DNA from: Candidatus Omnitrophota bacterium
GTDB lineage: Bacteria > Omnitrophota > Gorgyraeia > Gygaellales > Profunditerraquicolaceae
Assembly (NCBI GenBank): GCA_026416665.1
Contig: JAOAET010000051.1
Location: 139,800 to 203,799, forward strand
DNA: 64,000 nt
Reading direction: 5' to 3'
Position numbers and translations under genes: made by a program. Below, piece after piece: positions 42,736 through 61,421 of the stretch (positions within the stretch are counted from its first letter, which is position 1; each line of letters begins with the position of its first letter). The notes beneath the pieces were generated by a model. The model searched no databases, was not told where the DNA came from, and was given only the letters and a program-made list of their open reading frames with translations.

Positions 42736-44052
42736 ATGCTTGTAGCTATCCGTAGATTGTATAATTCTGTAACCAAAAAAGAGCGTAAGATATTATTAGA
42801 GAACTTTTTTTCCCTAACTACCCTGCAAGGAATAAGCTACATTCTACCTGTTCTTGTTCTGCCATATCTTATCCGCACTATCGGTCCAGAGCGTTTTGGT
42901 CTTATTGCCTTTGCCCAATCATTGATGCAATACTTTATGATTATTACTGAGTATGGCTTTAATGTTACTGCCACCCGCCAAATCGCTCTTTGCCAGCAAA
43001 AACAACAACAAGTCTGTAATATTTTTTCTGGGGTAATGACTATAAAGATTATCCTCCTTTGTTTGTGTTTTTTTATTCTAATTCTGCTTATTAAGTTTGT
43101 TCCCCGTTTCACAAGAGACTGGCAAGTTTATTGTATCAGCTTCGGCACAGTGGTAGGCAACACTTTATTCCCTGTCTGGTTTTACCAAGGAAAAGAAAAT
43201 ATGCGTTATATTGCCGTTTTAAATATTATCTCAGGATTAGTTTTAGTTCTGGGTATTTTTATTTTTGTAAAAGACCCTTCTGGCTTTATTATTGCTGTTT
43301 TCTTGCAGTCAGCTATCTCTATAATTATAGGTTTATACGCACTTATCTTTGCATTTCGTAAATTTAATCTTTATTTTACTGTACAGACTTACCCGCAGTT
43401 AAAAAACCAGCTTAAAGAAGGCTGGCAAATCTTCTCTTCAATTATTGCAGTTAACGCCTATACTACTAGTCGTATTTTTATTCTTGGCTTTTTAACTAAC
43501 AACACAATTACTGGCTATTATGCAGTAGCTGAACGTATTGCATACTGCATCCAAACTTTTCCTCTGCAATCTTTTATCCAAGCCGTATTCCCACGCCTTA
43601 GCCACATATTTCAAAAAAATAAAAAACGTGCCTTTAGTCTTCTCTCCAAGATGCATACCACTACTATCCAGGGCTTTCTAATTAGTCTACCACTTATTTT
43701 TTTAATCTCAGGCTGGATGATTGAGTTAGTCACAGGTTACCGCTCTCAGATAGCTAATGCCAGTCTTCAAATTTTACTCTTAGCTGTGGCTGTTGTAGGC
43801 TTTAATTCCTTTCGTCTTCAATATCTTTTAATTGCCAATAGAACTCAAATCTATGCCCAAATACATTATACCATGGCTTTATTAGGAGTGTTTTTAATCT
43901 TTATCTGGACATATCTTTTTTCATATATTGGCACTGCCATTGCAACGGTGTTTATTGAAATAGGGATATTTTTGCTTACCGCTGAAGCCCTTAAGGAAGA
44001 GAGACAACAACAAGTTTACTCATCAAACACTAAAGCGTTATTTACTTTTTAG
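42736..44052 (+). CDS. polysaccharide/oligosaccharide flippase (Wzx-like, MOP superfamily)
   Basis: ~12 predicted TM helices, ~440 aa. The track ORF starts at a TTG at 42697. The ATG at 42736 is more likely but has no SD. A TTGACT-17-TAGATT motif sits at 42700-42728. Confidence 0.55.
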   Translation: MLVAIRRLYNSVTKKERKILLENFFSLTTLQGISYILPVLVLPYLIRTIGPERFGLIAFAQSLMQYFMIITEYGFNVTATRQIALCQQKQQQVCNIFSGVMTIKIILLCLCFFILILLIKFVPRFTRDWQVYCISFGTVVGNTLFPVWFYQGKENMRYIAVLNIISGLVLVLGIFIFVKDPSGFIIAVFLQSAISIIIGLYALIFAFRKFNLYFTVQTYPQLKNQLKEGWQIFSSIIAVNAYTTSRIFILGFLTNNTITGYYAVAERIAYCIQTFPLQSFIQAVFPRLSHIFQKNKKRAFSLLSKMHTTTIQGFLISLPLIFLISGWMIELVTGYRSQIANASLQILLLAVAVVGFNSFRLQYLLIANRTQIYAQIHYTMALLGVFLIFIWTYLFSYIGTAIATVFIEIGIFLLTAEALKEERQQQVYSSNTKALFTF

Positions 44053-45339
44053 TAAAATGTCTTCAGATCTTTTATCAGAAGCTAACAATGAGGAACAAGC
44101 TTCTTGATAAACCTTTAAAGCCTCAGGAAACGGTGAAAGGGTTCGTTCAAGGACATTCTGCAGAGCCGAAACAGCAATTCCGTAATTAGTAATAGGTACT
44201 TTTTGTGTCTTTGCTTTATGAATACGCCAAAGCATCTCACGCCGGGTAATCATACAACCGCCACAATGGATAATTAATTTGTAAACAGAAAGGTCATCAG
44301 GATAATCTCTTCCTGCACAGGTCTCAATAATTATATTTTTACCTGTTCTCATACGCAACCAACGTGGTATCTTTACTCTTCCTATATCATCTTCAATAGG
44401 ATGATGGCTACAAGACTCGGCAATAAGAACACGGTCATTATCTTCTAAAGCATGGATTTGGGCAGCACCACGGGCTAACTCTATTAAATCACCTTTTGCG
44501 CGAGCAAAAAGAATAGAAAAAGTTGTACACGCCACAGAAGCAGGTGTGTCACGCACCATCTGGTCTACTACTTGAGAATCACAAACCACCAGATTAGGAT
44601 ACTCTTTTAATTTCTTAAGTAAACTTATATATTCTACCTCGTTAACTACTACAGCTGCCTGATGATGGTCAAGTAAATCCCTAATGGTCTGAACCTGTGG
44701 CAAAATAATCCTTCCTTTTGGTGCTTCTTTATCAATAGGAACAATCAAAACCGCCAACCCCTGGGATGGAATGATGTCTCCTATAATAGGTGGTGGTCGA
44801 AAATAATCTTCAGGACATACTTCTAAAAGATGCTTTTTAAGAGGATTAACATAATTATCCCGATTCTTGTAATCAAGGCTTGATACCAAAATAAAACGTT
44901 TTACTTTTTCTTCCACTAACCGTAAAAAGTCCTCCGATGGTGGATTAACATCAATCTTATTAATTACTACAATAACTGGCAAAGAACGCTTTTTTGCCTC
45001 TTCCAGAACCTCGGACTCATATTCATTCCACTGATTTGCCTCTGTTACCAAAATAATCACATCTGCACGGTCAAATACCTTCTGCGTCTTTTTAATACGA
45101 AGTGACCCCAAAATAGAGCGGTCATCTAAACCTGCTGTATCTAAAAATACTACTGGACCAACAGGGAGAAGCTCCATTGTCTTTTCTACAACATCCGTAG
45201 TTGTCCCTGGCACAGGTGAAGTAATCGCTACATCTTGCCCAGCCACTAAATTAAGAAAACTTGACTTTCCTACGTTAGTTCTTCCAAATATTCCTATTTG
45301 TAATCTCAACGATTTAGGCGTCTTTTTCATTACACCCAC
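44038..45339 (-). CDS. hydF: [FeFe]-hydrogenase H-cluster maturation GTPase
   Basis: 433 aa. G1 GRTNVGKSS, G2 GTTTD. C-terminal Cys residues. Adjacent to hydE and hydG. Confidence 0.75.
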   Translation of the reverse strand: MGVMKKTPKSLRLQIGIFGRTNVGKSSFLNLVAGQDVAITSPVPGTTTDVVEKTMELLPVGPVVFLDTAGLDDRSILGSLRIKKTQKVFDRADVIILVTEANQWNEYESEVLEEAKKRSLPVIVVINKIDVNPPSEDFLRLVEEKVKRFILVSSLDYKNRDNYVNPLKKHLLEVCPEDYFRPPPIIGDIIPSQGLAVLIVPIDKEAPKGRIILPQVQTIRDLLDHHQAAVVVNEVEYISLLKKLKEYPNLVVCDSQVVDQMVRDTPASVACTTFSILFARAKGDLIELARGAAQIHALEDNDRVLIAESCSHHPIEDDIGRVKIPRWLRMRTGKNIIIETCAGRDYPDDLSVYKLIIHCGGCMITRREMLWRIHKAKTQKVPITNYGIAVSALQNVLERTLSPFPEALKVYQEACSSLLASDKRSEDILLKSK

Positions 45340-46283
45340 TCCTTGTTAGTTAAATTCAGTAAACTTTTTATCTGCGTGAAAGTAAGAGAATTTTTATGGT
45401 CATAAATCTTATAATTTTTACGGTAATTTGCCGGTGTGAAATTGCACATAATCACATTTGCCCCTGCCTTAAATGCCTCAATAACTGCTTTTTTTTGTCC
45501 AAGTGTAGCTAACGCAGTGGTTGCGGGAATATTTATTTTTCCAAGAAGAATACGCGTTAAAGCAATAACCTGATAAACCAGCAGAACATTTGGCGAAGGA
45601 TAATTGGCTAAAGGGGTCTGACTTTGCGCAAAAAAAGGTCCTACTGCCGCCATATCTACAGCTAAATTTTTCATAAGTAAGATGTCTTCAGCTAAATCTT
45701 CTGGTGTCTGGCCTGGTAAACCTATAATGTTTCCTGAACCTATCTGATAACCTATTTTTTTTAAAAAAAGCAGTGTCTTTATTCTCTGCTTTAATTTCTG
45801 TGAAGGATGTAAATATGCATAAAGCTTAGAATTAGCTGTTTCATGCTTAAGTAAGTATCTATCCGCTCCACTATCCCTTAAACAACGATATTCATCAAAA
45901 GACCTTTCTCCAATAGATAAGGTAATTGCAACCGCTGGAGCCCTTTTTTTTATCAGCTTAATAACTTTTGCCAAATCTTTAGCTTTTATACCAGGGTCGT
46001 CACCAGACTGAAGGATTACTGTTTTTATGCCTTTCTCTATAATTTTCTGTGCTGTTTTATCTATCTCCGACATACTCATTCTGTAACGTTTAAGTTTAGA
46101 ATTATCACGCCTTAAACCACAATAAAGACAGTTGCGAATACAGATATTAGAAAACTCAATAACACCTCTTAAATAAATCTCCCTGTCAAAATACATCCTA
46201 GTTAATTGTTCGGACTTGTGGATAAGTGATGAATATCGTTGTATATGAGTAAGACAATCTACTATTTCAGACTTGTTCATCAT
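45330..46283 (-). CDS. hydE: [FeFe]-hydrogenase maturase radical-SAM protein
   Basis: 317 aa. CX3CX2C motif CIRNCLYCGLRRDN. BioB-like fold. Operon context with hydG and hydF. Confidence 0.7.
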   Translation of the reverse strand: MMNKSEIVDCLTHIQRYSSLIHKSEQLTRMYFDREIYLRGVIEFSNICIRNCLYCGLRRDNSKLKRYRMSMSEIDKTAQKIIEKGIKTVILQSGDDPGIKAKDLAKVIKLIKKRAPAVAITLSIGERSFDEYRCLRDSGADRYLLKHETANSKLYAYLHPSQKLKQRIKTLLFLKKIGYQIGSGNIIGLPGQTPEDLAEDILLMKNLAVDMAAVGPFFAQSQTPLANYPSPNVLLVYQVIALTRILLGKINIPATTALATLGQKKAVIEAFKAGANVIMCNFTPANYRKNYKIYDHKNSLTFTQIKSLLNLTNKEWV

Positions 46284-46319: not shown

Positions 46320-47813
46320 TTAAAACCAGAGGTCACGTTCTCCTCTTTTAATTCTCTCTAAATATCCCAAAAATGCCTGATACAACTGCAAAGGAAAATC
46401 CTTTGGTCTTGTCCTAATTTCTTCTATTTCTCTAGCAATCAATGCCTCACCGATTTTTTTTGTTTCAAAACTTGCAAAATCTTCTAACCACTCCTGAAAG
46501 GTAAGCACTGCGTTTAACTTGCAGAAGCAACCTTCCTTACCACTACGCAAGAGATTCATAATGGTATCCCCTGTTCTTCCACAACGATACCCTGCAGTGC
46601 AAAAAGAGGTAATATAACCTAAATCTGCCAATTCCCTAATTACCTCATCCAGAGAACGACTATCTCCTAGGATAAACTGTTGTCGGAGTGGTTGCTGTTT
46701 AGTAAGACTCTGTGAATAGGAACCAACCCCTATTCGAGATGAGGCATCACGTTGAGTACACATTCCAATAACCGAACGAATAAATTCTGCTTTTTCACGA
46801 CAGGTGATAATAAGTCCTGCGTAAGGGATAGATAATCGCAAAACCGCAATAAGTTTTCTAAAGTCTTCATCCTTTACTCTATACGGTGGATTATTACAAA
46901 AAGGTGTATTAATCGCTGGTTCAATTCTCGGCACAGACACAGTGTGTGGCCCAACGCCAAAACACCTTTCTAAATCCCGTGCCTGAGCAAGCATACCCAA
47001 TACTTCATATCTCCAGTCATATAAACCAAACAGAGCCCCTATTGCCACATCATCAATTCCTGCTTCCATTGCCCGATGAAGCGAATAAAGCCTCCAGCGA
47101 TAATTTCCTTTAATAGTATCAGCAGGATGTAACTTTTCATAAGTTGATCTATGATATGTCTCTTGGAATACTTGATATGTCCCAATTCCTGCTTTTTTTA
47201 AAAGATATAAGTCCTGAATACTCATTGGTGCGGCATTAACATTTACTCTACGAATCTGCCCTATGCCGTTTCTTACTTTTATCTTAACACTATAAATTGT
47301 ACGCAGACTTTCACAAATATAGTTTATGTTGGTAAGTGGATGTTCTCCAAAAACCGCAATTACACGCTTATGACCTATGGTACCCGCTATTCTCTCTGTC
47401 TCTTGACGAATTTCTTCTTGGGTTAAAAACTTGCGTTGGATTTGGTGATTCTCTTTTCGGAAACCACAGTAAATACAGTTATTCACACAGAGATTAGAAA
47501 TATAAAGAGGGGCAAAGGTAACAATACGGTTATCGTAAACTTTTTTCTTAATTTCTTGGGCTGCTTCAAAAATTCTCTGCCAGATATCTTGCTCTGATAC
47601 CGCCATAAGAGAAGCTGCTTCTTCTAACTCCAAGGTTTGTATACTTCTTGCCTTCTCAATAATTTGTGAAATATACCCTCTGTCAGGTGGTTTTAGATTA
47701 GCTAAAATTTCTTCAATATTTGCCTTGGCTACAAAATCTTTTCCTTGGACGAGATATTTATTAACCTGTTCAGGTATGATAATTTTTTCTAAACTTATTT
47801 CTGTGTTAATCAT
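46320..47813 (-). CDS. hydG: [FeFe]-hydrogenase maturase radical-SAM tyrosine lyase
   Basis: 497 aa. CVNNCIYCGF radical-SAM motif. ThiH-like core. C-terminal Cys cluster CTAGYRCGRTGD. Confidence 0.75.
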   Translation of the reverse strand: MINTEISLEKIIIPEQVNKYLVQGKDFVAKANIEEILANLKPPDRGYISQIIEKARSIQTLELEEAASLMAVSEQDIWQRIFEAAQEIKKKVYDNRIVTFAPLYISNLCVNNCIYCGFRKENHQIQRKFLTQEEIRQETERIAGTIGHKRVIAVFGEHPLTNINYICESLRTIYSVKIKVRNGIGQIRRVNVNAAPMSIQDLYLLKKAGIGTYQVFQETYHRSTYEKLHPADTIKGNYRWRLYSLHRAMEAGIDDVAIGALFGLYDWRYEVLGMLAQARDLERCFGVGPHTVSVPRIEPAINTPFCNNPPYRVKDEDFRKLIAVLRLSIPYAGLIITCREKAEFIRSVIGMCTQRDASSRIGVGSYSQSLTKQQPLRQQFILGDSRSLDEVIRELADLGYITSFCTAGYRCGRTGDTIMNLLRSGKEGCFCKLNAVLTFQEWLEDFASFETKKIGEALIAREIEEIRTRPKDFPLQLYQAFLGYLERIKRGERDLWF

Positions 47814-49281: not shown

Positions 49282-50117
49282 TATATACTTTCCTTTAAAA
49301 GAAATATCTTTTTAAGAAAACCTTTCTTAGGAGAGAAAATTAATGATAGCATAAAAATAATACTGGAGACCAGAATGATCATTGCACCTGTAGGTAAATT
49401 CCAATGATATGATAATAGAAGTCCCAATAGACAAGAGCCAACACCTATAACAACTGCTACAATGCAAACTCTGGAAAAGGTATAACAAAGTTGAAGTGCG
49501 CTTGCTGCCGGATTAATCAGTAGGCTAAATATCAAAAGCCCACCGATACTACTCATATTTGCAGTAATTACCAGGGAACATAAAATAATAATTGTATAAT
49601 AAATAAACCGTTCTGGAATTCCCAAAGAATTTGCAACCTGTCGATTAAAAAGAACAACTTTTATTTGTTTAAATAAAAATACTAAAAAAAGCAGAACCAA
49701 TAAGCTTGTTATAGCCATAATCAGAAGTTGTGTCCGGTTAATTGTTAAGATACTACCCCACATTAACGAAAGCGCCTCTGTCTTTGCGCCAGGAATATTT
49801 GCCAAAAATAAAAAGGCCAAACCCAGCATAAGAGAAAAGAGAATCCCTACACTAATCTCCGGCCTAAAATTTGCTTTATCTGCCAGGGGCCCAATTATAA
49901 AAGTAACGATTGCACAAAATAAATAAGCCATCCATAAGGGATTAATCCCTAACACTATACCACATATTGCCCCAGCAAATGCAGCGTGAGAAATAGCTAC
50001 CCCCAGAAAAGGGATCTGTAACGTCACCACTAATACACCGACCAAAGAACAGCCTATACCTGCCAAAATACTTCCCCAAAAGGCATAGCGAAGAAATGAA
50101 TATTCAAGTAACTGCAT
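49281..50117 (-). CDS. znuB: metal (Zn/Mn) ABC transporter permease, ABC-3 family
   Basis: 278 aa, 8-9 TM helices. ZnuB/MntB-like. Confidence 0.65.
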   Translation of the reverse strand: MQLLEYSFLRYAFWGSILAGIGCSLVGVLVVTLQIPFLGVAISHAAFAGAICGIVLGINPLWMAYLFCAIVTFIIGPLADKANFRPEISVGILFSLMLGLAFLFLANIPGAKTEALSLMWGSILTINRTQLLIMAITSLLVLLFLVFLFKQIKVVLFNRQVANSLGIPERFIYYTIIILCSLVITANMSSIGGLLIFSLLINPAASALQLCYTFSRVCIVAVVIGVGSCLLGLLLSYHWNLPTGAMIILVSSIIFMLSLIFSPKKGFLKKIFLLKESI

Positions 50118-50914
50118 TAAGATTTCCCTTCTACAAAAATGGCGCCCCTTTGCTTATAAGGGACTACTTTTACTGGGCAGTCATAAAGATTAGACAAAAC
50201 ATCCTCTCTTAACGCCACTTCCTTAGACGCAGATAAAATAACTCTTCCTTTTTTCATCAGAACTATTTGATTACAACTTTTTGGTAAAAGTGTAAGGTCA
50301 TGGCTAACCAACAAAATGGTAAGCTCTTTTTCGCTTTTTATTTTATCTATTAGCTCAAGAAGCATTGCCTGTGCAGGAAGGTCAAGATTAGCTAGCGGCT
50401 CATCAAGTAATAGTAGTTTTGGTTGTTGGGCAAGAACTCTGGCCAAGGCAACTTTTCGCTGTTCACCTGCTGACAGATAACCGAATGGTCTATTTAACAA
50501 ATGCCTAATACCTACAAGCTCTGCTGCTTCTTCTATTGTCTCTTTGTCTTTTTTAGAAAAATTATGAAATAAAGAACTATGTGCCAGACGACCAAAACTA
50601 ATTACATCCCAAACTAAGAGGGGTATTTGGGGGTCAATACCAACATTTTGTGGGACATAACCCGTATGTTTTCGAATAAACTTTGGTGAATCTCTTAAAT
50701 CTCTCCCCAACACCTTTACCAAACCCGTTCGGATTTGGCAAAGGCCAAGGATACTTGCCAAAAGAGTAGTTTTACCTGCGCCATTAGGACCTGCTATGGT
50801 TACACAGGAATTTGCTAATACACAAAGACTTACCTGATGTAACGCTTGATGGTAACCATATTCTACATTAACACTATCCAGTACAATAACTGCTTCAGAA
50901 GTAGAATAATTCAT
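50117..50914 (-). CDS. znuC: metal (Zn/Mn) ABC transporter ATP-binding protein
   Basis: 265 aa. GPNGAGKTT and LSAGEQRKVALARVL. Confidence 0.7.
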   Translation of the reverse strand: MNYSTSEAVIVLDSVNVEYGYHQALHQVSLCVLANSCVTIAGPNGAGKTTLLASILGLCQIRTGLVKVLGRDLRDSPKFIRKHTGYVPQNVGIDPQIPLLVWDVISFGRLAHSSLFHNFSKKDKETIEEAAELVGIRHLLNRPFGYLSAGEQRKVALARVLAQQPKLLLLDEPLANLDLPAQAMLLELIDKIKSEKELTILLVSHDLTLLPKSCNQIVLMKKGRVILSASKEVALREDVLSNLYDCPVKVVPYKQRGAIFVEGKS

Positions 50915-51765
50915 TTTTGAATTGCTTCAATAAGACTTTGAATATTCTCTTCCAAGGTTCCTAAATATGAAAATTTACCATTTACTTCTTTGGGGAAATT
51001 ACTTAATACGACACGGGGAATACCTACGGAAGAGGAGATGGGATTGACACTGTTAGCTGAGCTCTGAAGATTATCTACTACTATTTTTACTTTTTCTTTT
51101 TTAGCCAAATCTATTAATTGCATCAGTGTCTTAGGAGTAATTTCTTCTGGTCTACCATAACTTGCAACTATTTTGAAACCCAACCAAGCTAACAAATCTT
51201 TCTGCATGTTGTTAACAATTACTTTTGATTCTTGAGGATAATTTTTTCGTAATTTATTCAATAATTGTAGACTTCTGTGTTTAATCAAAGAAATATATCG
51301 CTTACTATTATTTTTAAAAAAATCTGCTTTCTCTGGCCAGTAAGCTGACAAAACTTGGCTGATTTTCTCTGTTGCCTTCAAATACACTTCGGGGACCATC
51401 CAGCTACCTTCTACATCAAGCGCAATAACAGTAGTTAATGCCTTATCTTTTCCAGTTAACGAACGTAGCTTTTCTAATATTGTCTTTTCCTCGAATCTAT
51501 GCCCAATAATCAATGTTGCCTGCTGTAACAATTGTGCCTCTTTTACAGTAAGGTCAAAATGCCCGGGACAACTCTGTGGTGGGATAAGGCAGTGTAGTTT
51601 GACTGAATCGGTTGCAATTTCCTGGACAATACTAGCAATATCCGAAGTAGTTACAACTATGATAGGTTTTGCTTCAACATAACTAATAGATAGACAATTA
51701 GAAACACAAAACAATAGAAATGACTTTTCTATAAAATGCCTTATCTTATCTAACAAATTTACCAT
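50911..51765 (-). CDS. znuA: metal ABC transporter substrate-binding protein (TroA/ZnuA family)
   Basis: 284 aa. IVVTTSDIASIVQEIATDSVKLHCLIPPQSCPGHFD parallels the ZnuA VVTT...SLVQ...LVPP...H.YE pattern. Confidence 0.6.
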   Translation of the reverse strand: MVNLLDKIRHFIEKSFLLFCVSNCLSISYVEAKPIIVVTTSDIASIVQEIATDSVKLHCLIPPQSCPGHFDLTVKEAQLLQQATLIIGHRFEEKTILEKLRSLTGKDKALTTVIALDVEGSWMVPEVYLKATEKISQVLSAYWPEKADFFKNNSKRYISLIKHRSLQLLNKLRKNYPQESKVIVNNMQKDLLAWLGFKIVASYGRPEEITPKTLMQLIDLAKKEKVKIVVDNLQSSANSVNPISSSVGIPRVVLSNFPKEVNGKFSYLGTLEENIQSLIEAIQK

Positions 51766-53558
51766 TTAAAAGTTAATCCTATTTCATAATTACGTTTAGG
51801 TTGCACAAAAACACCTGAGGCACCTGGTATATCAGCATAAATCTTATGTTCTACGTTTAACACATTATTTACCGCCCCAAAAACTTCCCAACCTTCTTTT
51901 ACATTATACACAGTTTTTAGATTAAGTAAGAAAAAATTTGGTATTGCTTGCTGCTTATTATCTGCTGCATAGTATTCATCCACTATTTGTGCCATTACAC
52001 TATTTCTCCAACGCCCTACAGAATTTAAAATAGAGACATCTACTTCATGCTTGGGTCTGCCTTGAGTAAATCTACCTGTGTGTAGCCAGCTGTAGGAAAC
52101 ACGGCCTTGCCAATGCTTGTTAAAGGCATAATTTAAGGAAGATTCGTGTCCTCTAAAACGCACTTTATCTAAGTTTTGAAATTTACCCGCACTTATGCGG
52201 ATAAAATCCCGTGCATGCATAATGAAATAAGTAGTCTCTAAACTAATTTTTTCATTAAAAATATGATTAATACCTACCTCGTAATTCCAAACAGTCTCTT
52301 CTTTTAAATCCGGATTTGCCTGGGTGGCAAATCGCAATTCATTTAATTGTGGGGCACGGAACCCGCGATTAACTACTGCCCGCAGGCTTGTTGTGTCCAA
52401 AACGCGTAGCACTGCACCTGTTTGAGTAGCGATTAATGAACCTGCATATTCATCCTCATTATAGCGTACACCTGCAGTTAAAATTAATCTATCCAAAAAT
52501 CTCTGCTCATCCTGTAGAAAAAAACCATATTCGTCTTTTTCGTATTTACCCAAGGTTACACCTGGTCCATTTAATACTTTACCTCCTTGTTGACGAAACT
52601 CGCCCCCAATAAGCAGTTGGTTTGTTTCTATCAATTTCACCCCATAGTGCATTATGACACCATTGGTATAATCTTTAGAATGGGTTTTGTCAGAAAATCT
52701 ATGTGTCCCAAAGTCCCGGTATAGTTTGCCCAAAATACTTAAATTCTCACCAATTTCACCCTCTAAACTTAAATCATACGAGCCCCGTTCATAATTATTC
52801 CAAGAATAAGCAGGTGAAGGGGCGGGTTCACGTTTGAATCCATCATATGCACGGCTGTTGAATATTAATTTAAGCTCATCATTTAACTGTTGGGCAAGGC
52901 GCAAAGTTAGATTTTTTCTATTAAAATCAGAATTAGGCAGATGCCCACGTGTTTTTAGGGTATCAAAGGTAACAAAATAATCAAATCTATCGTATTTGCC
53001 ACCTTGTTTAAGCAGAACCTCCCAGAGGTCATATGAACCATAAAGAGTTTTTAATTCTCCTTGAAACTCTTTGGTAGGTTTTTCAGTTATAATATTTAAA
53101 ACACCTCCTAATGCATCAGAACCATAAAGCACAGAGGCAGGACCACGAACTACTTCTATACGTTGAACATTATCCAAGGGGAAAGCATCGGTTATCGTGC
53201 AACCATACAGACCCATTTTTTCAGGCTTACCATCTACTAAAACCATAATACGCCTACCACGGCTACCGTGTCCTCGGATAACTACATCTGCCCTGCCAAA
53301 ACCGGTGGTTTTATGTACAAAAACACCTGGTAACCCAGAAAGTAAATCTGTAGCAGAATGGCTCGTTGTTGCCTCTATATCCTTTTTGGTGATAACACTT
53401 ACTGCCAAAGAAGAATCTGATACTGATAGAGAATAACGTGAAGGCGTAACCACAATTTTACCTAAAGAATATTCATCTTCCTGTTGTTGGGCAAAGACCG
53501 TAATACCACTAAATAAAACCACACCCGATAAAGTTACAAGTAACCACTTGCTTTTCAT
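51759..53558 (-). CDS. TonB-dependent outer-membrane receptor
   Basis: 599 aa. Signal peptide. TonB box GKIVVTPSR. Plug plus beta-barrel. C-terminal aromatic residue (..TFKW). Confidence 0.8.
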   Translation of the reverse strand: MKSKWLLVTLSGVVLFSGITVFAQQQEDEYSLGKIVVTPSRYSLSVSDSSLAVSVITKKDIEATTSHSATDLLSGLPGVFVHKTTGFGRADVVIRGHGSRGRRIMVLVDGKPEKMGLYGCTITDAFPLDNVQRIEVVRGPASVLYGSDALGGVLNIITEKPTKEFQGELKTLYGSYDLWEVLLKQGGKYDRFDYFVTFDTLKTRGHLPNSDFNRKNLTLRLAQQLNDELKLIFNSRAYDGFKREPAPSPAYSWNNYERGSYDLSLEGEIGENLSILGKLYRDFGTHRFSDKTHSKDYTNGVIMHYGVKLIETNQLLIGGEFRQQGGKVLNGPGVTLGKYEKDEYGFFLQDEQRFLDRLILTAGVRYNEDEYAGSLIATQTGAVLRVLDTTSLRAVVNRGFRAPQLNELRFATQANPDLKEETVWNYEVGINHIFNEKISLETTYFIMHARDFIRISAGKFQNLDKVRFRGHESSLNYAFNKHWQGRVSYSWLHTGRFTQGRPKHEVDVSILNSVGRWRNSVMAQIVDEYYAADNKQQAIPNFFLLNLKTVYNVKEGWEVFGAVNNVLNVEHKIYADIPGASGVFVQPKRNYEIGLTFKW

Positions 53559-53753
53559 CCTTCCTCCTTTTTAAAAGGGTTTTTAACAAAAAAGAATATA
53601 TTTTTATTACTTTTCTAAATTTCGTGTTACAAATAATAAAAAAAATATAACTTTATGCCAAAAGCTAGATTAAAAATTATATGGGGCAAATAGACCAAAC
53701 ATTGTTTTTCGCGTAGAAAATAAAAGTACTTATTTGTTATTACTTTTTTAAAA

Positions 53754-53782
53754 ATCATAACACAAAATTATTCTCTGTCAAG
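53754..53782 (-). promoter_or_regulatory. candidate sigma70 promoter for the TonB-receptor/znuACB operon, with a long (~185-nt) leader
   Basis: Minus strand: TTGACA (plus 53777-53782), 17 nt, TATGAT (plus 53754-53759). A near-palindromic AT-rich box AATAAGTACTTTTATT lies at about +1 to +30. Confidence 0.4.
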
Positions 53783-53809
53783 TTTTTTAGAGATTCTAGT
53801 AGTAAAAAA

Positions 53810-54397
53810 TCAGAACCTTGCCTGCACAATCTTCCAGTTGATAACATTTAAAAAATTTTCTACATACTTTGCCCGCTCAAGTTGATAATCTATTAGATAA
53901 GCATGTTCAAAAACGTCTAAGACCAGAATAACTTTAGCAGTAACTAAATGTCCTACATCGTGTTCATTAACCCAGACATTAAATAACTGCTTACTCTGAG
54001 AGTCCTGATACAATAACACCCAACCAATACCTCTCATTAATGCAGTAGAGACAAAATCCTTCTTCCATTGTTCAAGACTTGTAAAATCCTCAATTATTTT
54101 CTTAGCTAATTCGCTCTTAGGGTCTAAAGGGTTATTTGCTCCAATATTTTCAAAGTATAACTCATGCAAACGCATACCATTAAATTCCCAACCAAATCGG
54201 CGTTTTAGTTCGGCAAAATCAACAGCCCTATCTTTTCCTTCTTTTTTTAATAAATTTAATTGTTCCAGAATAATATTTGTGTTTTTTACATAACCCTGGT
54301 ATAGTTTGAAATGATTTTCTAATAAGGTATCACTAAAACCTGCTGTGCCTTTTAAGTAAGAAAAATCTTTAGCTTGGTAAACTATGCTCTCACCCAT
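53810..54397 (-). CDS. Fe/Mn-family superoxide dismutase (divergent)
   Basis: 195 aa. N-terminus YQAKDFSYLKG.FSDTLLENHFKLYQGYVKNTN aligns to SOD helix 1. C-terminus DVFEHAYLIDYQLERAKYVENFLNVINW matches DxWEHAYY...NW. Last gene of the hyd operon. Confidence 0.65.
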   Translation of the reverse strand: MGESIVYQAKDFSYLKGTAGFSDTLLENHFKLYQGYVKNTNIILEQLNLLKKEGKDRAVDFAELKRRFGWEFNGMRLHELYFENIGANNPLDPKSELAKKIIEDFTSLEQWKKDFVSTALMRGIGWVLLYQDSQSKQLFNVWVNEHDVGHLVTAKVILVLDVFEHAYLIDYQLERAKYVENFLNVINWKIVQARF

Positions 54398-54437: not shown

Positions 54438-56237
54438 TTATATTTTTACAGTTTTGTTTAATAAAAAAGGGGTATCTAGTTCATTTCTTTCATGGTAATG
54501 TGTATGTAACAACTGATGAGAAAGTTCAGAAAGAGGTTTACCTAAAAACTCTTGATAAATCTGTTTTATCGCAGGATTCTCATGGGATTTACGAACAGAT
54601 TTACTGCGGTCTTCCTCGTAAATTGCCTCCATTCGTTTTTGTCTTGTCTGTGTATCTGTAGGAATTGGTTGTCCACCACCACCCAAACACCCACCAGGGC
54701 AGGTCATTATTTCAATAAAAGTATAAGGAGATTTACCATTCTGAACCTCCTCTAATAAAACACGGGCATTACTTAAGGAATTCGCTACGGCTACTTTAAG
54801 TAACAATCCATTTAAATCTAACTCGGCAGTTTTTATTCCCTCAAGGCCTCTTACTTGTTTAAATTCAACATCACTAAGTGGCTGATTAGTTAAAACTTCG
54901 TAGGCGGTACGTAGAGCTGCTTCCATTACACCACCTGTTGCTCCAAATACAACCGCCGCACCTGTAGAAATACCAAGAGGCTCGTCAAATTCTTCATCTG
55001 CTAAACGAGTAAAATCAATACCTGCTTCTTTCATCATGCGAGCAGCCTCTCGCGTAGTTAAAACGAAATCCACATCTACAAAATGTTCTTTTTCATCTAA
55101 ATTCATAACATTTTTCCAATACCTGAAGGCTGCATCCATCTCAGGCCTATGTGCCTCAAATTTTTTGGCAGTACAGGGCATTATTGATACAACTACTATT
55201 TTACGTGGGTCAATACCTATTTTTTTTGCATAGTAAGTTTTTGCCACTGCTCCAAACATCTGTTGTGGCGATTTACAACTGGAAATGTGCTTAAGCACTT
55301 TAGGATAGAAATGCTCGGCAAACTTAATCCAACCAGGAGAACAAGAAGTAATCAGCGGTAAAGGTCCTTTATTTTTAATCCGATGAATTAATTCGTGTGC
55401 TTCTTCCATAATAGTAAGGTCAGCAGAAAATTGGGTATCAAATACTTTTTTAAACCCAAGCCTACGTAAAGCAGCAACCATCTTACCCGTTATACGACTT
55501 CCTGCAGCCAACCCAAATTCTTCACCAATAGAAGCCCTTACTGCCGGAGCTGTTTCTACCACTACAAATTTTTGGTTATCTGACAATGCCTTCCAGACCC
55601 CTTGAATATGATAATTCTCAACTAAAGCGCCCGTCGGACAAACCAAAAGACATTGTCCACAATTAACACACGAAGAATTTCCTAACCCTCTATCCATAAA
55701 AGTGCTGATACGCGTGCGTTTACCCCGGTTTATCGCCTCTATAGCCCGCACAGATTGAATTTTTTCACAAACTGCAGTGCATCTACGACAGAGAATACAT
55801 TTATTAGGGTCACGAACAATAGCCGAAGAACTTTGGTCTATGGGTAAAGATATGCTGGTTTCTTTAGAAAACCGCACTCTTTGGATTCCCATCTCAAAAG
55901 CAAGACGGCGCAGTTGGCAATTCTGGTTACGTTCACAGACAAAACAGTCTTGAGGATGGCTTGCCAAAAGTAGTTCTAAGTTTAAAAGGCGCCCTTTACG
56001 TACACGCTCGGTGTTAGTTCGAATTACCATTCCGTCTGTAACTTCTGTGACGCAAGCACGCATTAGCGTCTTTGCTCCTTCCACCTCTACAAGGCAAATA
56101 GAACAAGAGGCTTCTTCGCTTACTCCGTCTAAATAACAGAGATTAGGAATAATAATACCTAACTCTTCACAAGCCTTCAAAATAGTAGTGGCTTTAGCAA
56201 TCTGGTATTCTTGTCCATCAATAGTGATTTTGGGCAT
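54438..56237 (-). CDS. hydA: [FeFe]-hydrogenase catalytic subunit HydA (multimeric/bifurcating type) with a variant L1 motif
   Basis: 599 aa. N-terminal [2Fe-2S] ferredoxin-like domain, then [4Fe-4S] Cys clusters. H-cluster motifs L2 MPCTAKKFE and L3 EIMTCPGGCLGGGGQP are canonical. L1 reads TSCSPGW (from DNA, plus 55336-55350) instead of TSCCPxW. Confidence 0.8.
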   Translation of the reverse strand: MPKITIDGQEYQIAKATTILKACEELGIIIPNLCYLDGVSEEASCSICLVEVEGAKTLMRACVTEVTDGMVIRTNTERVRKGRLLNLELLLASHPQDCFVCERNQNCQLRRLAFEMGIQRVRFSKETSISLPIDQSSSAIVRDPNKCILCRRCTAVCEKIQSVRAIEAINRGKRTRISTFMDRGLGNSSCVNCGQCLLVCPTGALVENYHIQGVWKALSDNQKFVVVETAPAVRASIGEEFGLAAGSRITGKMVAALRRLGFKKVFDTQFSADLTIMEEAHELIHRIKNKGPLPLITSCSPGWIKFAEHFYPKVLKHISSCKSPQQMFGAVAKTYYAKKIGIDPRKIVVVSIMPCTAKKFEAHRPEMDAAFRYWKNVMNLDEKEHFVDVDFVLTTREAARMMKEAGIDFTRLADEEFDEPLGISTGAAVVFGATGGVMEAALRTAYEVLTNQPLSDVEFKQVRGLEGIKTAELDLNGLLLKVAVANSLSNARVLLEEVQNGKSPYTFIEIMTCPGGCLGGGGQPIPTDTQTRQKRMEAIYEEDRSKSVRKSHENPAIKQIYQEFLGKPLSELSHQLLHTHYHERNELDTPFLLNKTVKI

Positions 56238-56280: not shown

Positions 56281-59200
56281 TTACTCAGTTTTTACATCAC
56301 AACGCAAACACCGAAGTGTCTCTAAATGTGCCTGATTTTCTGTCAGTCCCAATGAAATTTCTTTAAAGTTGTTCAACCTTTGGGAAAGTTTTAATCTTTG
56401 CCCTGTTTGTTTCTTAGCAGCAGCTGGTTTAGGGGGAACAGACATAGAATAAGCAAATTTACCTGTTAACAGACAAGACCTGTCCTCATGCATAAGATAA
56501 CGGTCAATGGCAAAAGCAGCTGTTTTGCCGTCAGCCATAGCCTCTACGGCTGTAGCAGGTCCTCTCACTAAATCGCCACCAGCAAATACCTTATCCACTG
56601 TGGTCTTAAGGGTAAAACGATTAACTAATACTGTGCCATCTTTGTTACAAACTAATCCAAACTGACGTAAGAAGTCCGAATCTACTGATTCACCTATCGC
56701 AGTAAGTATTGTATCAGCCTCTATCTCAAAAGTTTCTTCTGTAGGAATAGGTCTTCTTCTTCCTGAGGCATCAAAATCTCCAGGCACCATCTTTTGAACA
56801 AGTAATGCACGCACACAACCTTTGTTATCGGATAGAATTTCTTTAGGGGCTGCATAGAAAACAAATCTAACACCCTCTCGCTGTGCTTCTTTTATCTCAT
56901 CTTCATTAGCAGGCATATCATCGTGGCCCCTGCGATAAACAATAGTAGGTTGAGCGCCAAATCTTAAAGCAGTGCGCGCAGCATCTACTGCAACATTACC
57001 CGCACCTATAATTATTACCTTTCTACCAATATTTGGTTTCTTTTTCTGGGCAACTGCCTCAAGATAACTAACACCGCTGGTAACTCCTTTTAGATTCTCT
57101 CCAGGAATACCTAAAGGTACACTCTTATAAGCACCTGTAGCTAAAAACACTGCATCGTTCTTACTGGCAATAATGCGTAAGGAGTCAGCGTCAACCTTTG
57201 TATTAAACACAAATCTTACCCCTAGTTTTTTAATAAAACTTATTTCTTTGGCAAGAACTTTTTTAGGAAGACGATATTCAGGGATACCATAACGTAAGAT
57301 TCCTCCTGCCTCAGCAAACTTTTCATAAACTGTTACCGAATGGCCCAGACGAATAAGATAAAACGCTGCTGTCAACCCCGCAGGCCCTGCGCCTATAATA
57401 GCAACTTTTTTCTTAGTAGAAGCAGGTTTTTCTGCAAATAACTTTTTAATAATGGTTAATTCCTTTTTCTTTTTATAAATAGTATCTGCTACAAACCTAT
57501 GAACTTCTCCCTGCGATACAGGTTCATCAATATCTTCTCTACGACAACGTAATTTGCAATGGAAGTGACAAATTCTACCTGAAGAAGCAGGAAAAGGATT
57601 GTCTCTGTAAATCAACTCAAATGCCTGGCGTAATTTACCTTCTTTTAACAATGTTAGATAGCCAGGAATATTTATGTGTAAAGGACAAGAATTTTCACAA
57701 GGGGCAAGAAAAAGCTTAAGACATACACCTGCATCACAACGTTTTTCTTCAATATGCTGTTCATACTCCTGACGAAAATACTTTAGAGTTGTTAAAACAG
57801 GATTAGGAGCGGTCTGACCTAATCCACAAAGTGCAGAATCTTTGATACCATTTCCTATCTCCTCTAATAAAACCAAATCTTCCTGCTCAGCTTGACCTGC
57901 AGTAACCTTACGAAGAATATTTAATATCTGATATAAACCTTCCCTACAGGGAGTACACTTACCGCAGGATTCGGACATAACAAATTCGGTAAAGTAGCGC
58001 GCAACATCCACCATACAATTGTCCTGGTCCATAACTACCATTCCACCTGACCCCATTATTGCACCTAGACTATTTAGTGATTCGTAATCTACAGGCGTAT
58101 CAAACAAAGAAACCGGAATACAGCCACCGGAAGGACCACCTGACTGCACTGCCTTTACTTTCTTACGTGTTCCTGTGCCTGCACCAATATTGTAAACTAA
58201 TACTTTTAAAGGCTGGCCCAAAGGAAGTTCCACCAGACCTGTATTTTTAACCTTGCCAACAAGTGAGAATACCTTGGTACCACTTGAGGTAGCAGTTCCT
58301 GTTTGGGTAAACCATTCACCACCTTTAGCTATAATTACTGGAATATTACACCAAGTTTCCACGTTGTTGATGGTGGTTGGCTTATCGTATAGACCTTTCT
58401 GGGCAGGAAATGGTGGACGTAATCTGGGTCTTCCAGATTTTCCTTCAATAGAGGCAATCATAGCTGTTTCTTCTCCACAGACAAAAGCACCCGCACCTTC
58501 AACTAAACGCAGACTAAAAGAAAATTCCGTTCCCAAGATTTTGGAACCCAATATGCCATACTCTTCAGCCTGCTTTATTGCCTGCTTTAGACGCAGAACC
58601 GCTAAAGGATACTCTGCTCTAATATAAATTATTCCTTCTTTTGCACCCATTGCATAAGCGCCAATAATCATACCTTCTATAAGCATATGTGGGTCTGACT
58701 CTATTTCATTACGGTTCATATAGGCACCTGGGTCTCCTTCATCAGCATTACAGATTACATACTTTTGGTCTGAGACTACCTGTTTCATTAATTCCCATTT
58801 TCTGCCAGTAGGAAAACCTGCTCCACCTCTTCCGCGTAGTTTAGATTTCTTCACCTCTTCAATTACTGATTCAGGAGTAAATTTGGTTAATACCTTATAA
58901 AGAGAATAATAACCACCAACAGCAATATATTCTTCGATATCTTCAGGATTAATTAGACCAGCATTGCGCAATACAATCTTCTTTTGCCATTTGAAAAAAT
59001 CAAGCTCGTTCCAAAGAGGAATATGCTCAAGCCCTTGTCCAAATTCTATCTTTTCGGTCAGATGGTCCCATGTATCTATCCTACATAGACACAATCGTTC
59101 CAAAATAGAACCTTTTTTAAGTTCTGAGATTATACGACTAACATCTTTTTCCGATACTTTTTTAAGAATTACCAAGGGCTTACCCGGCAGGTGAATATTA

Positions 59201-59424
59201 ACCAGTGGCTCTTGGGCACAGAAACCAAAGCAACCAGTTTTGGTTATTTGCCAGTTGAGTTTGTTTTTGGCAATAGTTTTCTGAAAAGCTGTGTATACTT
59301 TATCGGCATCATTACCAATACCACAGGTACCCATCCCTATGGCAATACGAATGTTTTGGGAAAGATATTTCTTTAGACCCCGGGCTTTTATTTCTTGTAA
59401 TTGCTCAAGATTAGTTATTTTCAT
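56281..59424 (-). CDS. hydB: fusion of a HydB/NuoF-like flavoprotein subunit with a C-terminal GltD/NfnB-like FAD/NAD(P)H oxidoreductase domain
   Basis: 1047 aa. N-terminal thioredoxin-like [2Fe-2S] domain. NuoF core (GRGGAGFPTGRKW, ESCGKCTPCREG). Ferredoxin-like Cys motifs. Then a GltD-type module (CENSCPLHINIP...; KKVAIIGAGPAGLTAAFYL; VIIIGAGNVAVDAARTALRFGA). Confidence 0.75.
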   Translation of the reverse strand: MKITNLEQLQEIKARGLKKYLSQNIRIAIGMGTCGIGNDADKVYTAFQKTIAKNKLNWQITKTGCFGFCAQEPLVNIHLPGKPLVILKKVSEKDVSRIISELKKGSILERLCLCRIDTWDHLTEKIEFGQGLEHIPLWNELDFFKWQKKIVLRNAGLINPEDIEEYIAVGGYYSLYKVLTKFTPESVIEEVKKSKLRGRGGAGFPTGRKWELMKQVVSDQKYVICNADEGDPGAYMNRNEIESDPHMLIEGMIIGAYAMGAKEGIIYIRAEYPLAVLRLKQAIKQAEEYGILGSKILGTEFSFSLRLVEGAGAFVCGEETAMIASIEGKSGRPRLRPPFPAQKGLYDKPTTINNVETWCNIPVIIAKGGEWFTQTGTATSSGTKVFSLVGKVKNTGLVELPLGQPLKVLVYNIGAGTGTRKKVKAVQSGGPSGGCIPVSLFDTPVDYESLNSLGAIMGSGGMVVMDQDNCMVDVARYFTEFVMSESCGKCTPCREGLYQILNILRKVTAGQAEQEDLVLLEEIGNGIKDSALCGLGQTAPNPVLTTLKYFRQEYEQHIEEKRCDAGVCLKLFLAPCENSCPLHINIPGYLTLLKEGKLRQAFELIYRDNPFPASSGRICHFHCKLRCRREDIDEPVSQGEVHRFVADTIYKKKKELTIIKKLFAEKPASTKKKVAIIGAGPAGLTAAFYLIRLGHSVTVYEKFAEAGGILRYGIPEYRLPKKVLAKEISFIKKLGVRFVFNTKVDADSLRIIASKNDAVFLATGAYKSVPLGIPGENLKGVTSGVSYLEAVAQKKKPNIGRKVIIIGAGNVAVDAARTALRFGAQPTIVYRRGHDDMPANEDEIKEAQREGVRFVFYAAPKEILSDNKGCVRALLVQKMVPGDFDASGRRRPIPTEETFEIEADTILTAIGESVDSDFLRQFGLVCNKDGTVLVNRFTLKTTVDKVFAGGDLVRGPATAVEAMADGKTAAFAIDRYLMHEDRSCLLTGKFAYSMSVPPKPAAAKKQTGQRLKLSQRLNNFKEISLGLTENQAHLETLRCLRCDVKTE

Positions 59425-59951
59425 TTTGCCTTTCCCCTTCTGGCTATTCTTGATACCAGTTCTTTTAATTTGTTTTCTGTCATATGGCTATAAATTACAC
59501 CGTCAATCTCTACTACCGGAGCCAATGCACACTGTCCAAAACATGCCACTGTTTTAATAGTGAACTTTTTATCTGCAGTAGTAAGGAATACTTTTTCTCC
59601 CTCCTGGGATTCCTCTTCTTTTATTCCCAGCATCTTTTTAATAAACTCCAATAGCTCTTTAGAACGGCGGGTATGGCAGGCTGTCCCGCGACAGATAATG
59701 ATGGAATGTTCTCCTTGTGGTTTGAGATTAAAAAATGCATAAAAGGTAACTACACTGTAAATACGAGAAAGAGGAATAGCTGTCTTTTTTGATATATAAG
59801 CAAGAACTTCTTCGGGAAGATATTTATGTTTATTAAGATTCTGAACTTCTTCTAATATGCTTAAAAGTCCTCCGGGTTTTCCAACATACTTATTTATTAC
59901 TGCGTCTACTTTAGCTAAGGAAAATTCTTCTTTCGTAATAGTCTTACCCAT
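59421..59951 (-). CDS. hydC: NuoE/HydC-like [2Fe-2S] thioredoxin-fold subunit
   Basis: 176 aa. CRGTACH...CFGQCALAP. 4-nt overlap with hydB. Confidence 0.75.
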   Translation of the reverse strand: MGKTITKEEFSLAKVDAVINKYVGKPGGLLSILEEVQNLNKHKYLPEEVLAYISKKTAIPLSRIYSVVTFYAFFNLKPQGEHSIIICRGTACHTRRSKELLEFIKKMLGIKEEESQEGEKVFLTTADKKFTIKTVACFGQCALAPVVEIDGVIYSHMTENKLKELVSRIARRGKAK

Positions 59952-59976: not shown

Positions 59977-61395
59977 TTATTTTTTACTGTTTAGATATAA
60001 ATCAATGGCCTTTGCAGCTTTACGACCCGCACCCATTGCAGTAATAACCGTAGCTGCACCTGTTACCACATCTCCTCCTGCAAATACACCTGCAAGAGAT
60101 GTCTGTCCATTCTCATCTGCCTCAATCTCACCTTTCTTTTTTACCTTTAATCCCGGAGTGGTTCGCGAAATAATCGGATTGGGAGTGTTACCAATAGCTA
60201 CAATTACCTCATCGACATCTAACAAGAACTCAGAACCTGCTATGGGAATTGGACTTCTACGGCCTGAGGCATCGGGTTCACCTAATTTCATCTTAATACA
60301 TTCTACTTGTCTTACCATCCCTGAATCATTACCCAAATAGCGAATAGGATTAGTAAGTAAGCAAAAATCAATTCCCTCTTCTTTAGCTCTTTCAATCTCT
60401 TCTTGACGTGCAGGCATTTCTGTTTCTGAACGTCGATAGATTAAATATACATGCTCAGCGCCCAAACGCAAAGCAGTTCTTGCAGAATCCATAGCGACAT
60501 TGCCACCACCAATAACTGCAACAAATTTACCCCGTTTTACCGGTGTATCATACTCAGGGAACTTATAAGCCTGCATTAAATTAACACGTGTTAGAAACTC
60601 GTTTGCCGAATAAATTCCACCCAAATTTTCGCCTGGAATACCCATAAAATTAGGAAGACCTGCACCCGCACCAATAAAAATAGCTTGAAAACCTTCTTTA
60701 AAAAGGTCTTCTATAGTCAATGCTCTACCAATTAGGGCATTAGTTACAAAATTTACTCCTAATTCTGCTAACTTTTCTATCTCCGCCTGAACAATTGCTT
60801 TAGGTAGACGAAATTCTGGTATCCCGTACACTAACACTCCCCCTAACTTATGGTAACCTTCAAAGACAGTAACCTCATAGCCCATTTTGGCTAATTCTGC
60901 AGCACACGTTAATCCTGCTGGCCCTGACCCAACCACTGCTACCTTCTTATTTTTCTTCGGTACGCTTATTAATACTGCTGTCTTTTGTTTTTTTCTATTA
61001 GCTAAATCCCAGTCAGCTAAAAACCGTTCTAGTCTTCCAATAGAAATAGGGTCGCCCATTTTTTTCATCACACAAACTGCCTGACACTGTTCTTCCTGGG
61101 GGCAAACACGACCAGTCATACAAGGCAGGGAATCGTTTTCGTGAATTATATCAATTGCCTTTTGGAACTCCTTCTGACGCAGGGCCTTTATAAAGGAAGG
61201 TATATCTATGTGAACCGGACAGCCTTCTACACAAGGTTTCTTCGCACATTGAAGACAACGCGATGCTTCTTCAATTGCCTCTTGTTCGTTATAACCTAAG
61301 GGAACCTCATTAAAATTTTTAATGCGCTCTACAACTGGCTGTTGGCGCATTGGAACTGCTTTTTTCTTAATTTCCATAATATATAGCTTTTGCAA
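59977..61395 (-). CDS. NfnB/GltD/SudA-like NAD(P)H:ferredoxin oxidoreductase large subunit
   Basis: ~465-472 aa. N-terminal 2x[4Fe-4S] Cys motifs (CLQCAKKPCVEGCP...). FAD site KVAVVGSGPAGLTCAAEL. NAD(P)H site VAVIGGGNVAMDSARTALRLGA. Confidence 0.75.
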   Translation of the reverse strand: MQKLYIMEIKKKAVPMRQQPVVERIKNFNEVPLGYNEQEAIEEASRCLQCAKKPCVEGCPVHIDIPSFIKALRQKEFQKAIDIIHENDSLPCMTGRVCPQEEQCQAVCVMKKMGDPISIGRLERFLADWDLANRKKQKTAVLISVPKKNKKVAVVGSGPAGLTCAAELAKMGYEVTVFEGYHKLGGVLVYGIPEFRLPKAIVQAEIEKLAELGVNFVTNALIGRALTIEDLFKEGFQAIFIGAGAGLPNFMGIPGENLGGIYSANEFLTRVNLMQAYKFPEYDTPVKRGKFVAVIGGGNVAMDSARTALRLGAEHVYLIYRRSETEMPARQEEIERAKEEGIDFCLLTNPIRYLGNDSGMVRQVECIKMKLGEPDASGRRSPIPIAGSEFLLDVDEVIVAIGNTPNPIISRTTPGLKVKKKGEIEADENGQTSLAGVFAGGDVVTGAATVITAMGAGRKAAKAIDLYLNSKK

Positions 61396-61421
61396 AATTT
61401 TACTTTCTTAAATAAGTAATA

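Follow-up and report, generated by a model that had tools for sequence, protein, structure and literature searches.

The window analysed here is a 64,000-nucleotide stretch of DNA from a Candidatus Omnitrophota bacterium (contig JAOAET010000051.1). It contains a run of genes in the order nfnA-like, nfnB/gltA-like, hydC, hydB and hydA, with hydA as the last gene, and three H-cluster maturase genes, hydG, hydE and hydF, located 6.6-10 kb from hydA:

61422-62234: nfnA-like gene
59977-61395: nfnB/gltA-like gene
59421..59951, minus strand: hydC, NuoE/HoxE-like thioredoxin-type [2Fe-2S] subunit, 176 aa (Pfam 2Fe-2S_thioredx, 2.2e-41; NuoE/HoxE models)
56281..59424, minus strand: hydB fused to a GltD/NfnB-like module, 1047 aa (Pfam Complex1_51K, NADH_4Fe-4S, Fer4_20 and Pyr_redox_2)
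54438..56237, minus strand: hydA, M3-type [FeFe]-hydrogenase catalytic subunit, 599 aa (Pfam, NCBIfam and PDB matches)
46320..47813, minus strand: hydG, H-cluster radical SAM maturase (TIGR03955, 450.9 bits vs cutoff 312)
45330..46283, minus strand: hydE, H-cluster radical SAM maturase (TIGR03956, 306 bits vs cutoff 254.6)
44038..45339, minus strand: hydF, H-cluster maturation GTPase (TIGR03918, 523.6 bits vs cutoff 325.6)

All three maturases scored above the NCBIfam equivalog cutoffs, and a tblastn search with the H-domain found no second hydrogenase within the window as an alternative client for them. An earlier note on this DNA had argued from the nearby hydEFG genes that the hydrogenase is functional. 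The maturases proved to be present as described, and with them function is probable. The NuoF-like hydB and the NuoE-like hydC lie directly upstream of hydA on the same strand, which is the arrangement of a HydABC/BfuABC (group A3) operon.

HydA consists of a 2Fe-2S domain, a NuoG-type 4Fe-4S domain, a 2x[4Fe-4S] domain, the H-domain and a small-subunit-like tail, as seen from Pfam matches to Fer2_4, NADH-G_4Fe-4S_3, two Fer4, Fe_hyd_lg_C (1.8e-96) and Fe_hyd_SSU. In Pfam terms, CpI-like and HydABC-type HydA proteins both have this M3 architecture. The NCBIfam model NF040763 ('NADH-dependent [FeFe] hydrogenase, group A6') matched residues 3-584 with 877 bits (cutoff 765), and a 100% identical protein in NCBI, from a Candidatus Omnitrophica MAG, is named "NADH-dependent [FeFe] hydrogenase, group A6". 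Among the full-length phmmer matches in the PDB, T. kivui HydA1 (8a6t) was the best with E = 1e-192, A. woodii HydA1 (7q4v) scored 604 bits with E = 2.7e-180, and CpI gave a value of ~1e-150. The proteins of A. woodii, T. kivui and CpI all lack an insertion of ~18 aa that is found in the window HydA at residues ~369-386.

Two other identities of the protein were considered and rejected. Sensory [FeFe]-hydrogenases (groups C/D, of the HydS type, such as T. maritima HydS) have lost the proton-relay Cys and carry PAS or signalling domains. HydA keeps this residue as Cys299, and no PAS or other sensory or signalling domain was detected in it with Pfam, so a HydS-like identity was ruled out. A C-terminal histidine kinase was present in two homologues (P0046 and P0073) but absent from the window HydA. 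Group B enzymes, according to two preprints, have three Cys in a row in a TSCCCP motif (bioRxiv 10.1101/2023.06.23.541094 and 10.64898/2025.12.18.695218). A group B identity was ruled out by the TSCSP motif of HydA and by its score with the group B1 model TIGR04105, which at 162.6 bits is below the cutoff of 450.

Group A H-domains are defined by the motifs L1 (TSCCPxW), L2 (MPCxxKxxE) and L3 (ExMxCxxGCxxGxGQP), which together provide the four ligands of the cubane. The H-domain of HydA carries all three, of which L2 and L3 are canonical, while L1 is a documented Ser variant. Their positions are given below:

55335..55349, minus strand: L1 motif TSCSP, residues 297-301, with Cys299 as proton relay and with Ser300 in the place of a [4Fe-4S]H ligand
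55338..55340, minus strand: Ser300 codon TCT, equivalent to CpI Cys300
55155..55181, minus strand: L2 motif MPCTAKKFE, residues 353-361, with the ligand Cys355 and with Lys358
54666..54713, minus strand: L3 motif EIMTCPGGCLGGGGQP, residues 509-524, with Cys513 and Cys517 corresponding to CpI Cys499 and Cys503

At 55335-55349 the minus strand reads ACT TCT TGT TCT CCT, which encodes T-S-C-S-P. The surrounding codons, CTG ATT ACT TCT TGT TCT CCT GGT TGG ATT AAG TTT, give L-I-T-S-C-S-P-G-W-I-K-F, and the wider protein context of L1 is LPLITSCSPGWIKFAEHF. The observation that L1 of HydA reads TSCSP (...ITSCSPGWIKF) and not TSCCP, which had started this analysis, was thus reproduced in the codons themselves. 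The site had been placed correctly, but its coordinates, given as 55336-55350, were one base off. The canonical state of L2 and L3, also claimed earlier, held as well, with MPCTAKKFE and EIMTCPGGCLGGGGQP both found in the translation.

The alignment between HydA and CpI has no gaps over residues 206-367, so the numbering is equal in that stretch: Ser300 occupies the position of CpI Cys300, and Cys299 that of CpI Cys299. Gapless alignment to solved structures at more than 500 bits fixes this residue correspondence. The assignment in the earlier note, that the first Cys of L1 is the proton relay and that the second position is the [4Fe-4S]H ligand, agreed with the CpI alignment, and the relay Cys is kept. 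Seventeen of 20 catalytic, proton-pathway and H-cluster-environment positions of CpI were identical in HydA, with C300S, S232A and A321C as the exceptions. The proton pathway was complete, since Cys299, Glu279, Ser319, Glu282 and Arg286 are all as in CpI (5/5). Ser323, Pro324, Gln325, Met353 and Lys358 were also conserved. T. kivui HydA1 (8A6T) and CpI thus resemble the window HydA in fold, domain order, catalytic residues and proton-pathway residues, but they differ from it in having the all-Cys motif TSCCP, with Cys299 (T. kivui) or Cys300 (CpI) as the ligand.

The Ser codon is only one base away from a Cys codon, so a single wrong base (TCT for TGT) could have produced the variant, and a base-calling error had been named at the outset as an observation that would speak against it. 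The relatives of HydA argue strongly against such an artefact. At L1, Cys-Ser was found in every one of the 120 best database homologues (66-100% identity), in 119 of them as TSCSP and in one as SSCSP. The sequence TSCSPGWIKF was found in all 80 related loci from GTDB-representative genomes, whose proteins are 60-76% identical to the window HydA. These loci span at least ten phyla, among them Omnitrophota, Planctomycetota, Lentisphaerota, Verrucomicrobiota, Margulisbacteria, Elusimicrobiota, Bacteroidota, Ignavibacteriota, Caldisericota, Spirochaetota, Acidobacteriota and Kryptoniota. They were gathered with six peptide patterns, one of which (WIKFAEHF) adjoins L1; this could skew the sample toward a sub-clade, but not toward Ser itself. 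Across the 80 relatives the Ser codon was TCG in 38, TCT in 26, TCA in 9 and TCC in 7. Because 200 independent relatives all have Ser, and through four different TCN codons, a sequencing or assembly error was rejected. A decaying gene is contradicted by the intact hydA reading frame and by the score of HydA above the family cutoff. The probability that we leave to error or decay is practically negligible. The codons drift synonymously while the amino acid stays constant, a pattern in the aligned genes that marks Ser at position 300 as a residue under selection.

The variant is not confined to close relatives. The earlier note had described TSCCP as strictly conserved and had proposed a survey of L1 variants in homologues; the survey showed that strict conservation was a mistaken premise. 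We searched 1.84 billion 50%-identity cluster representatives with HMMER and analysed the best 150, in which [TS]SCSP occurred 24 times (16%) and [TS][ST]CCP about 100 times. Of 138 full H-domains aligned with MAFFT, 20 were Cys-Ser and 100 were Cys-Cys. Thr or Ala after the L1 Cys was seen only in single sequences of the broader H-domain set. Kertess et al. 2017 (PMC5855289) found Ser at this ligand position in about 20% of the sequences that they analysed, in agreement with the 16% counted here. Ser at the L1 ligand position is therefore an already known natural variant, which about 16-20% of the sequences in group A share. A single origin of the variant was disfavoured, as Fitch parsimony on a neighbour-joining tree required ~21 changes between Cys and Ser, with the Ser tips scattered; the tree is rough, with deep divergences and no support values, so this number is only indicative. 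The variant looks recurrent, and its distribution would fit frequent one-nucleotide switching between TGY and TCY.

The closest characterised counterpart is HydA1 of the A. woodii HydABC(D) complex (PDB 7Q4V, 7Q4W and 8A5E). It is identical to the window HydA over the 11 residues ITSCSPGWIKF at L1, shares the M3 architecture, the canonical L2 and L3 and the Cys at CpI position 321, and likewise has a NuoF-like HydB and a NuoE-like HydC as partners. Katsyv et al. 2023 (PMC10021017) solved the HydABC complexes of T. kivui (TSCCP) and A. woodii by cryo-EM, and described Ser301 of the latter as a ligand of the cubane, with no apparent effect on the FTIR signature of the H-cluster. The two complexes had similar IR signatures and catalytic activities (PMC10021017). 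The Ser-Fe bond of A. woodii HydA1 is taken from a cryo-EM model. Since this well-studied enzyme is active with the identical motif, an observation that the earlier note itself had named as counting against its reading, the TSCSP of the window HydA is an ordinary finding. The suggestion that the Ser would give a sensory-like or low-activity enzyme likewise found no support, because the A. woodii enzyme matches that of T. kivui in activity (PMC10021017).

By homology to A. woodii HydA1, we infer that Ser300 ligates the cluster and that HydA is active. In the proposed arrangement, the cubane of the H-cluster would be held by the Ser300 oxygen as a serinate and by Cys355, Cys513 and Cys517, with Cys517 bridging the [4Fe-4S] subcluster to the [2Fe] subsite. 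Cys299 would serve as the proton relay, with the rest of the pathway (Glu279, Glu282, Arg286 and Ser319) unchanged, and the H-cluster would be assembled by HydG, HydE and HydF. It is very likely that HydA is a functional group A enzyme in which one of the four [4Fe-4S] ligands is naturally Ser300 and the other three are Cys. This agrees with one of the two options raised by the earlier note, a Ser/O-ligated cubane, which is what the A. woodii HydABC cryo-EM paper describes (PMC10021017). On these grounds HydA is probably an ordinary, putatively functional catalytic subunit of a Ser-ligated group A ("A6", HydABC-type) hydrogenase.

Engineered enzymes show that such a ligand cannot be taken for granted. 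Kertess et al. 2017 (PMC5855289) mutated every cubane ligand of CrHydA1. The C115S protein, which has the same Cys-to-Ser change at the same ligand position as the window HydA but is engineered and not natural, lost most of its [4Fe-4S] cluster, took up no [2Fe] and was inactive (<1 umol H2 per min per mg; PMC5855289). The tolerance of Ser is thus context dependent and should not be assumed from the sequence alone, and the contrast with natural Ser enzymes that are active, A. woodii HydA1 among them, indicates that the surrounding scaffold matters. The failure of C115S to hold the cluster (PMC5855289) also lends some weight to a different arrangement, in which three Cys hold the cubane, the fourth Fe site is occupied by water, hydroxide or another residue, and Ser300 only forms hydrogen bonds. 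The same authors pointed out that a Ser ligand may become protonated and dissociate, depending on the redox state (Kertess 2017, PMC5855289), and the support from A. woodii is a cryo-EM model of moderate resolution (PMC10021017). Nevertheless, the authors of that structure modelled Ser301 as a ligand (PMC10021017), and the position is Ser, never Ala, Gly or Thr, in 200/200 relatives despite the synonymous codon changes. That Ser is retained through this codon drift speaks for a particular chemical function of its hydroxyl group. We regard a non-ligating Ser300 as quite improbable.

The other option of the earlier note, that the single Cys of L1 has shifted its role, would turn Cys299 into a cubane ligand, at the cost of the canonical proton relay, and leave a sensory-like or low-activity enzyme. 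A precedent of a kind exists in CrHydA1 C115A, for which Cys114 was suggested as a possible alternative ligand (Kertess 2017, PMC5855289). In A. woodii HydA1, however, the ligand was assigned to the Ser (PMC10021017), and the A. woodii enzyme has normal turnover, H/D exchange included, and adopts the states Hox, Hred, HoxH and Hhyd, all of which require a working relay. In the window HydA the relay residues Glu279, Glu282, Arg286 and Ser319 are conserved, and PAS or other sensory domains are absent. With the whole proton pathway conserved, the shifted role found no support and is very improbable.

A fourth thiolate might also come from a second Cys elsewhere in the H-domain, an outcome that had likewise been named at the outset as evidence against the Ser. 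The candidate is Cys321, which lies in SSCKSPQ where CpI has Ala321 in SSAKSPQ, and which is shared by the window HydA and A. woodii HydA1. This residue does not follow the Ser closely: Cys321 was present in 54% of the Cys-Cys and 70% of the Cys-Ser representatives, and six Cys-Ser representatives have Ala at this position. The H-domain of the window HydA has only five Cys, namely 299, 321, 355, 513 and 517. A column scan of the 138-sequence H-domain alignment found no column besides 321 that was enriched in Cys in the Ser group. The regex survey and this full column scan, together with the Cys inventory, ruled out a compensating Cys, and the idea that Cys321 or another Cys supplies the fourth thiolate is left with an exceedingly small probability.

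Ser300 as the fourth ligand in a functional enzyme thus remains the preferred reading. TSCSPGW has been recorded before: Di Rienzi et al. 2013 (PMC3787301) noted it in two Melainabacteria ACD20 hydrogenases, encoded by uncultured bacteria in trimeric confurcating-type operons. In the ACD20 hydrogenases the L3 cysteine is replaced by Ile, whereas L3 is complete in the window HydA; the loss of this cysteine means that the ACD20 proteins may be non-catalytic.

As a side observation, the locus has an unusual HydB, which has a NuoF-type FMN/NAD(H) core followed by 2x[4Fe-4S], FAD and NAD(P)H-binding domains. Residues 25-572 match the HydB/BfuB chains 7t2r_B, 9n5u_B, 7q4v_B and 8a6t_B, while residues 574-1043 are closest to the GltD-like domain, binding NADPH and FAD, in StnC (8oh5_C, residues 102-567) and in the NfnA of Nfn-Bfu (9n5u_A). 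The HydB matches stop at residue 541 of 599 in A. woodii and at residue 572 of 630 in T. kivui (query ~572), and from residue 559 on the protein is a GltD-type Fer4_20 and Pyr_redox_2 module. By Pfam and by the chain matches, the window HydB lacks the proposed ferredoxin site, a C-terminal 2x[4Fe-4S] domain of the bacterial-ferredoxin-like type. The 599-aa HydB of A. woodii has this usual ferredoxin-like domain, where the window HydB has a GltD/NfnB-like FAD/NADPH module of ~480 aa instead. Because HydB is without the C-terminal ferredoxin-like domain, we did not assign the complex to the canonical bifurcating HydABC type, and bifurcation to ferredoxin should not be assumed.

Fused HydB-GltD proteins of 1045-1093 aa were encoded directly upstream of the TSCSP hydA in 70 of the 80 related loci. 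The HydB of A. woodii is unfused, which shows that the Ser can occur without the fusion. In the Stn and Nfn-Bfu enzymes, it is the BfuA-like subunit that carries the GltD module, which there replaces the H-cluster (PMC10482914, PMC9304861). The window differs from both in that HydB bears the module and that a HydA with a genuine H-cluster is encoded as well. The published Bfu classification places Nfn-like domains on BfuA and not on BfuB (PMC9304861, PMC10482914), and neither Schut 2022 (PMC9304861) nor the Hydrogenedentota BfuABC paper mentions a HydB-GltD fusion. The sole precedent that we found is a HydB with a GltA (glutamate-synthase-type) domain in archaeal hybrid hydrogenases (PMC11216029).

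One might imagine that Ser300 is not neutral but an adaptation, found with multimeric hydrogenases coupled to pyridine nucleotides, that tunes the catalytic bias or the potential of [4Fe-4S]H. In this clade it would work in concert with HydB-GltD, and the enzymes would form a distinct and widespread subfamily in which H2 is coupled to both NAD(H) and NADP(H) and the ferredoxin domain is replaced. This proposal is speculative and we consider it unlikely. If it were true, it would mean an uncharacterised type of reaction in Omnitrophota, Bacteroidota, Ignavibacteriota and other phyla.

The TSCSP motif of HydA is in itself of very little importance, although it corrects the textbook simplification of an invariant TSCCP. 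The window HydA would be one more case, from an uncultured phylum, of a Ser-ligated H-cluster cubane. The clade to which it belongs, with at least 200 Ser-only sequences, would form a good comparative set for Ser tolerance together with its near relatives of the Cys-Cys type, for instance T. kivui HydA1. The clade with the HydB-GltD fusion is the more promising lead, and may matter more for the coupling of H2 and NAD(P)H in uncultured anaerobes.

The HydB subunit encoded in the window has an unusual architecture, in which a NuoF/BfuB core is fused to a GltD/NfnB-like module that stands in place of the usual C-terminal ferredoxin-like domain. The nearest likeness of this module is the NADPH domain of StnC/Nfn-Bfu. 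The genes of this part of the window are as follows.

56281-59424, minus strand: HydB fusion, 1047 aa, with a NuoF/BfuB core and a GltD/NfnB-like module (2x[4Fe-4S], FAD and NAD(P)H)
Within 59977-62234, minus strand: 270-aa protein matching PRK06222 (sulfide/dihydroorotate dehydrogenase-like FAD/NAD-binding protein)
Within 59977-62234, minus strand: 472-aa protein matching gltA-type NADPH-dependent glutamate synthase/NfnB
62245-63435: acetate kinase

The fusion was found directly upstream of hydA in 70 of the 80 related genomic loci, which span at least 10 phyla. We looked for it in the published Bfu classification (PMC9304861) and did not find it there; the sole precedent found was the HydB with a GltA domain in archaeal hybrid hydrogenases (PMC11216029). 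This architecture suggests that NADP(H) is coupled to H2, and the ferredoxin site is possibly absent.

The 270-aa and 472-aa proteins form an NfnAB-like gene pair directly upstream of hydC, with the acetate kinase gene further upstream. Among the 80 loci, a separate upstream GltD-like gene occurred only in the closest Omnitrophota-type ones (L001, L002, L004 and L006-L008). The region directly downstream of hydA (48673-54397, minus strand) includes the following genes.

53810-54397, minus strand: Fe/Mn superoxide dismutase
51759-53558, minus strand: TonB-dependent receptor
49281-51765, minus strand: ZnuABC-type metal ABC transporter

A superoxide dismutase adjoining an O2-sensitive hydrogenase operon is noteworthy in a presumed anaerobe.

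Two positions within HydA itself also drew attention.

About 55275-55277, minus strand: Cys321, in the SSxKSPQ loop adjoining the H-cluster
About 55080-55133, minus strand: insertion of ~18 aa (residues ~369-386), AAFRYWKNVMNLDEKEHF, located after L2 and ahead of the conserved block that follows

The Clostridium pasteurianum enzyme CpI has Ala321 instead of Cys. Because more than half of the surveyed group A representatives carry Cys321, irrespective of L1 type, this residue is a common HydA feature, and one that is seldom discussed. The insertion is extra relative to CpI and to HydA1 of T. kivui and A. woodii, and is kept in clade members such as P0046 (870 aa) and P0073 (877 aa). Both of the latter are metagenomic relatives with 67-70% identity, and each is a full M3-type HydA with TSCSP or SSCSP at L1 and intact L2 and L3, onto which a C-terminal histidine-kinase (HATPase_c) module is fused. 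They may be kinases that sense H2 or redox through a catalytic-type rather than a HydS-type hydrogenase.
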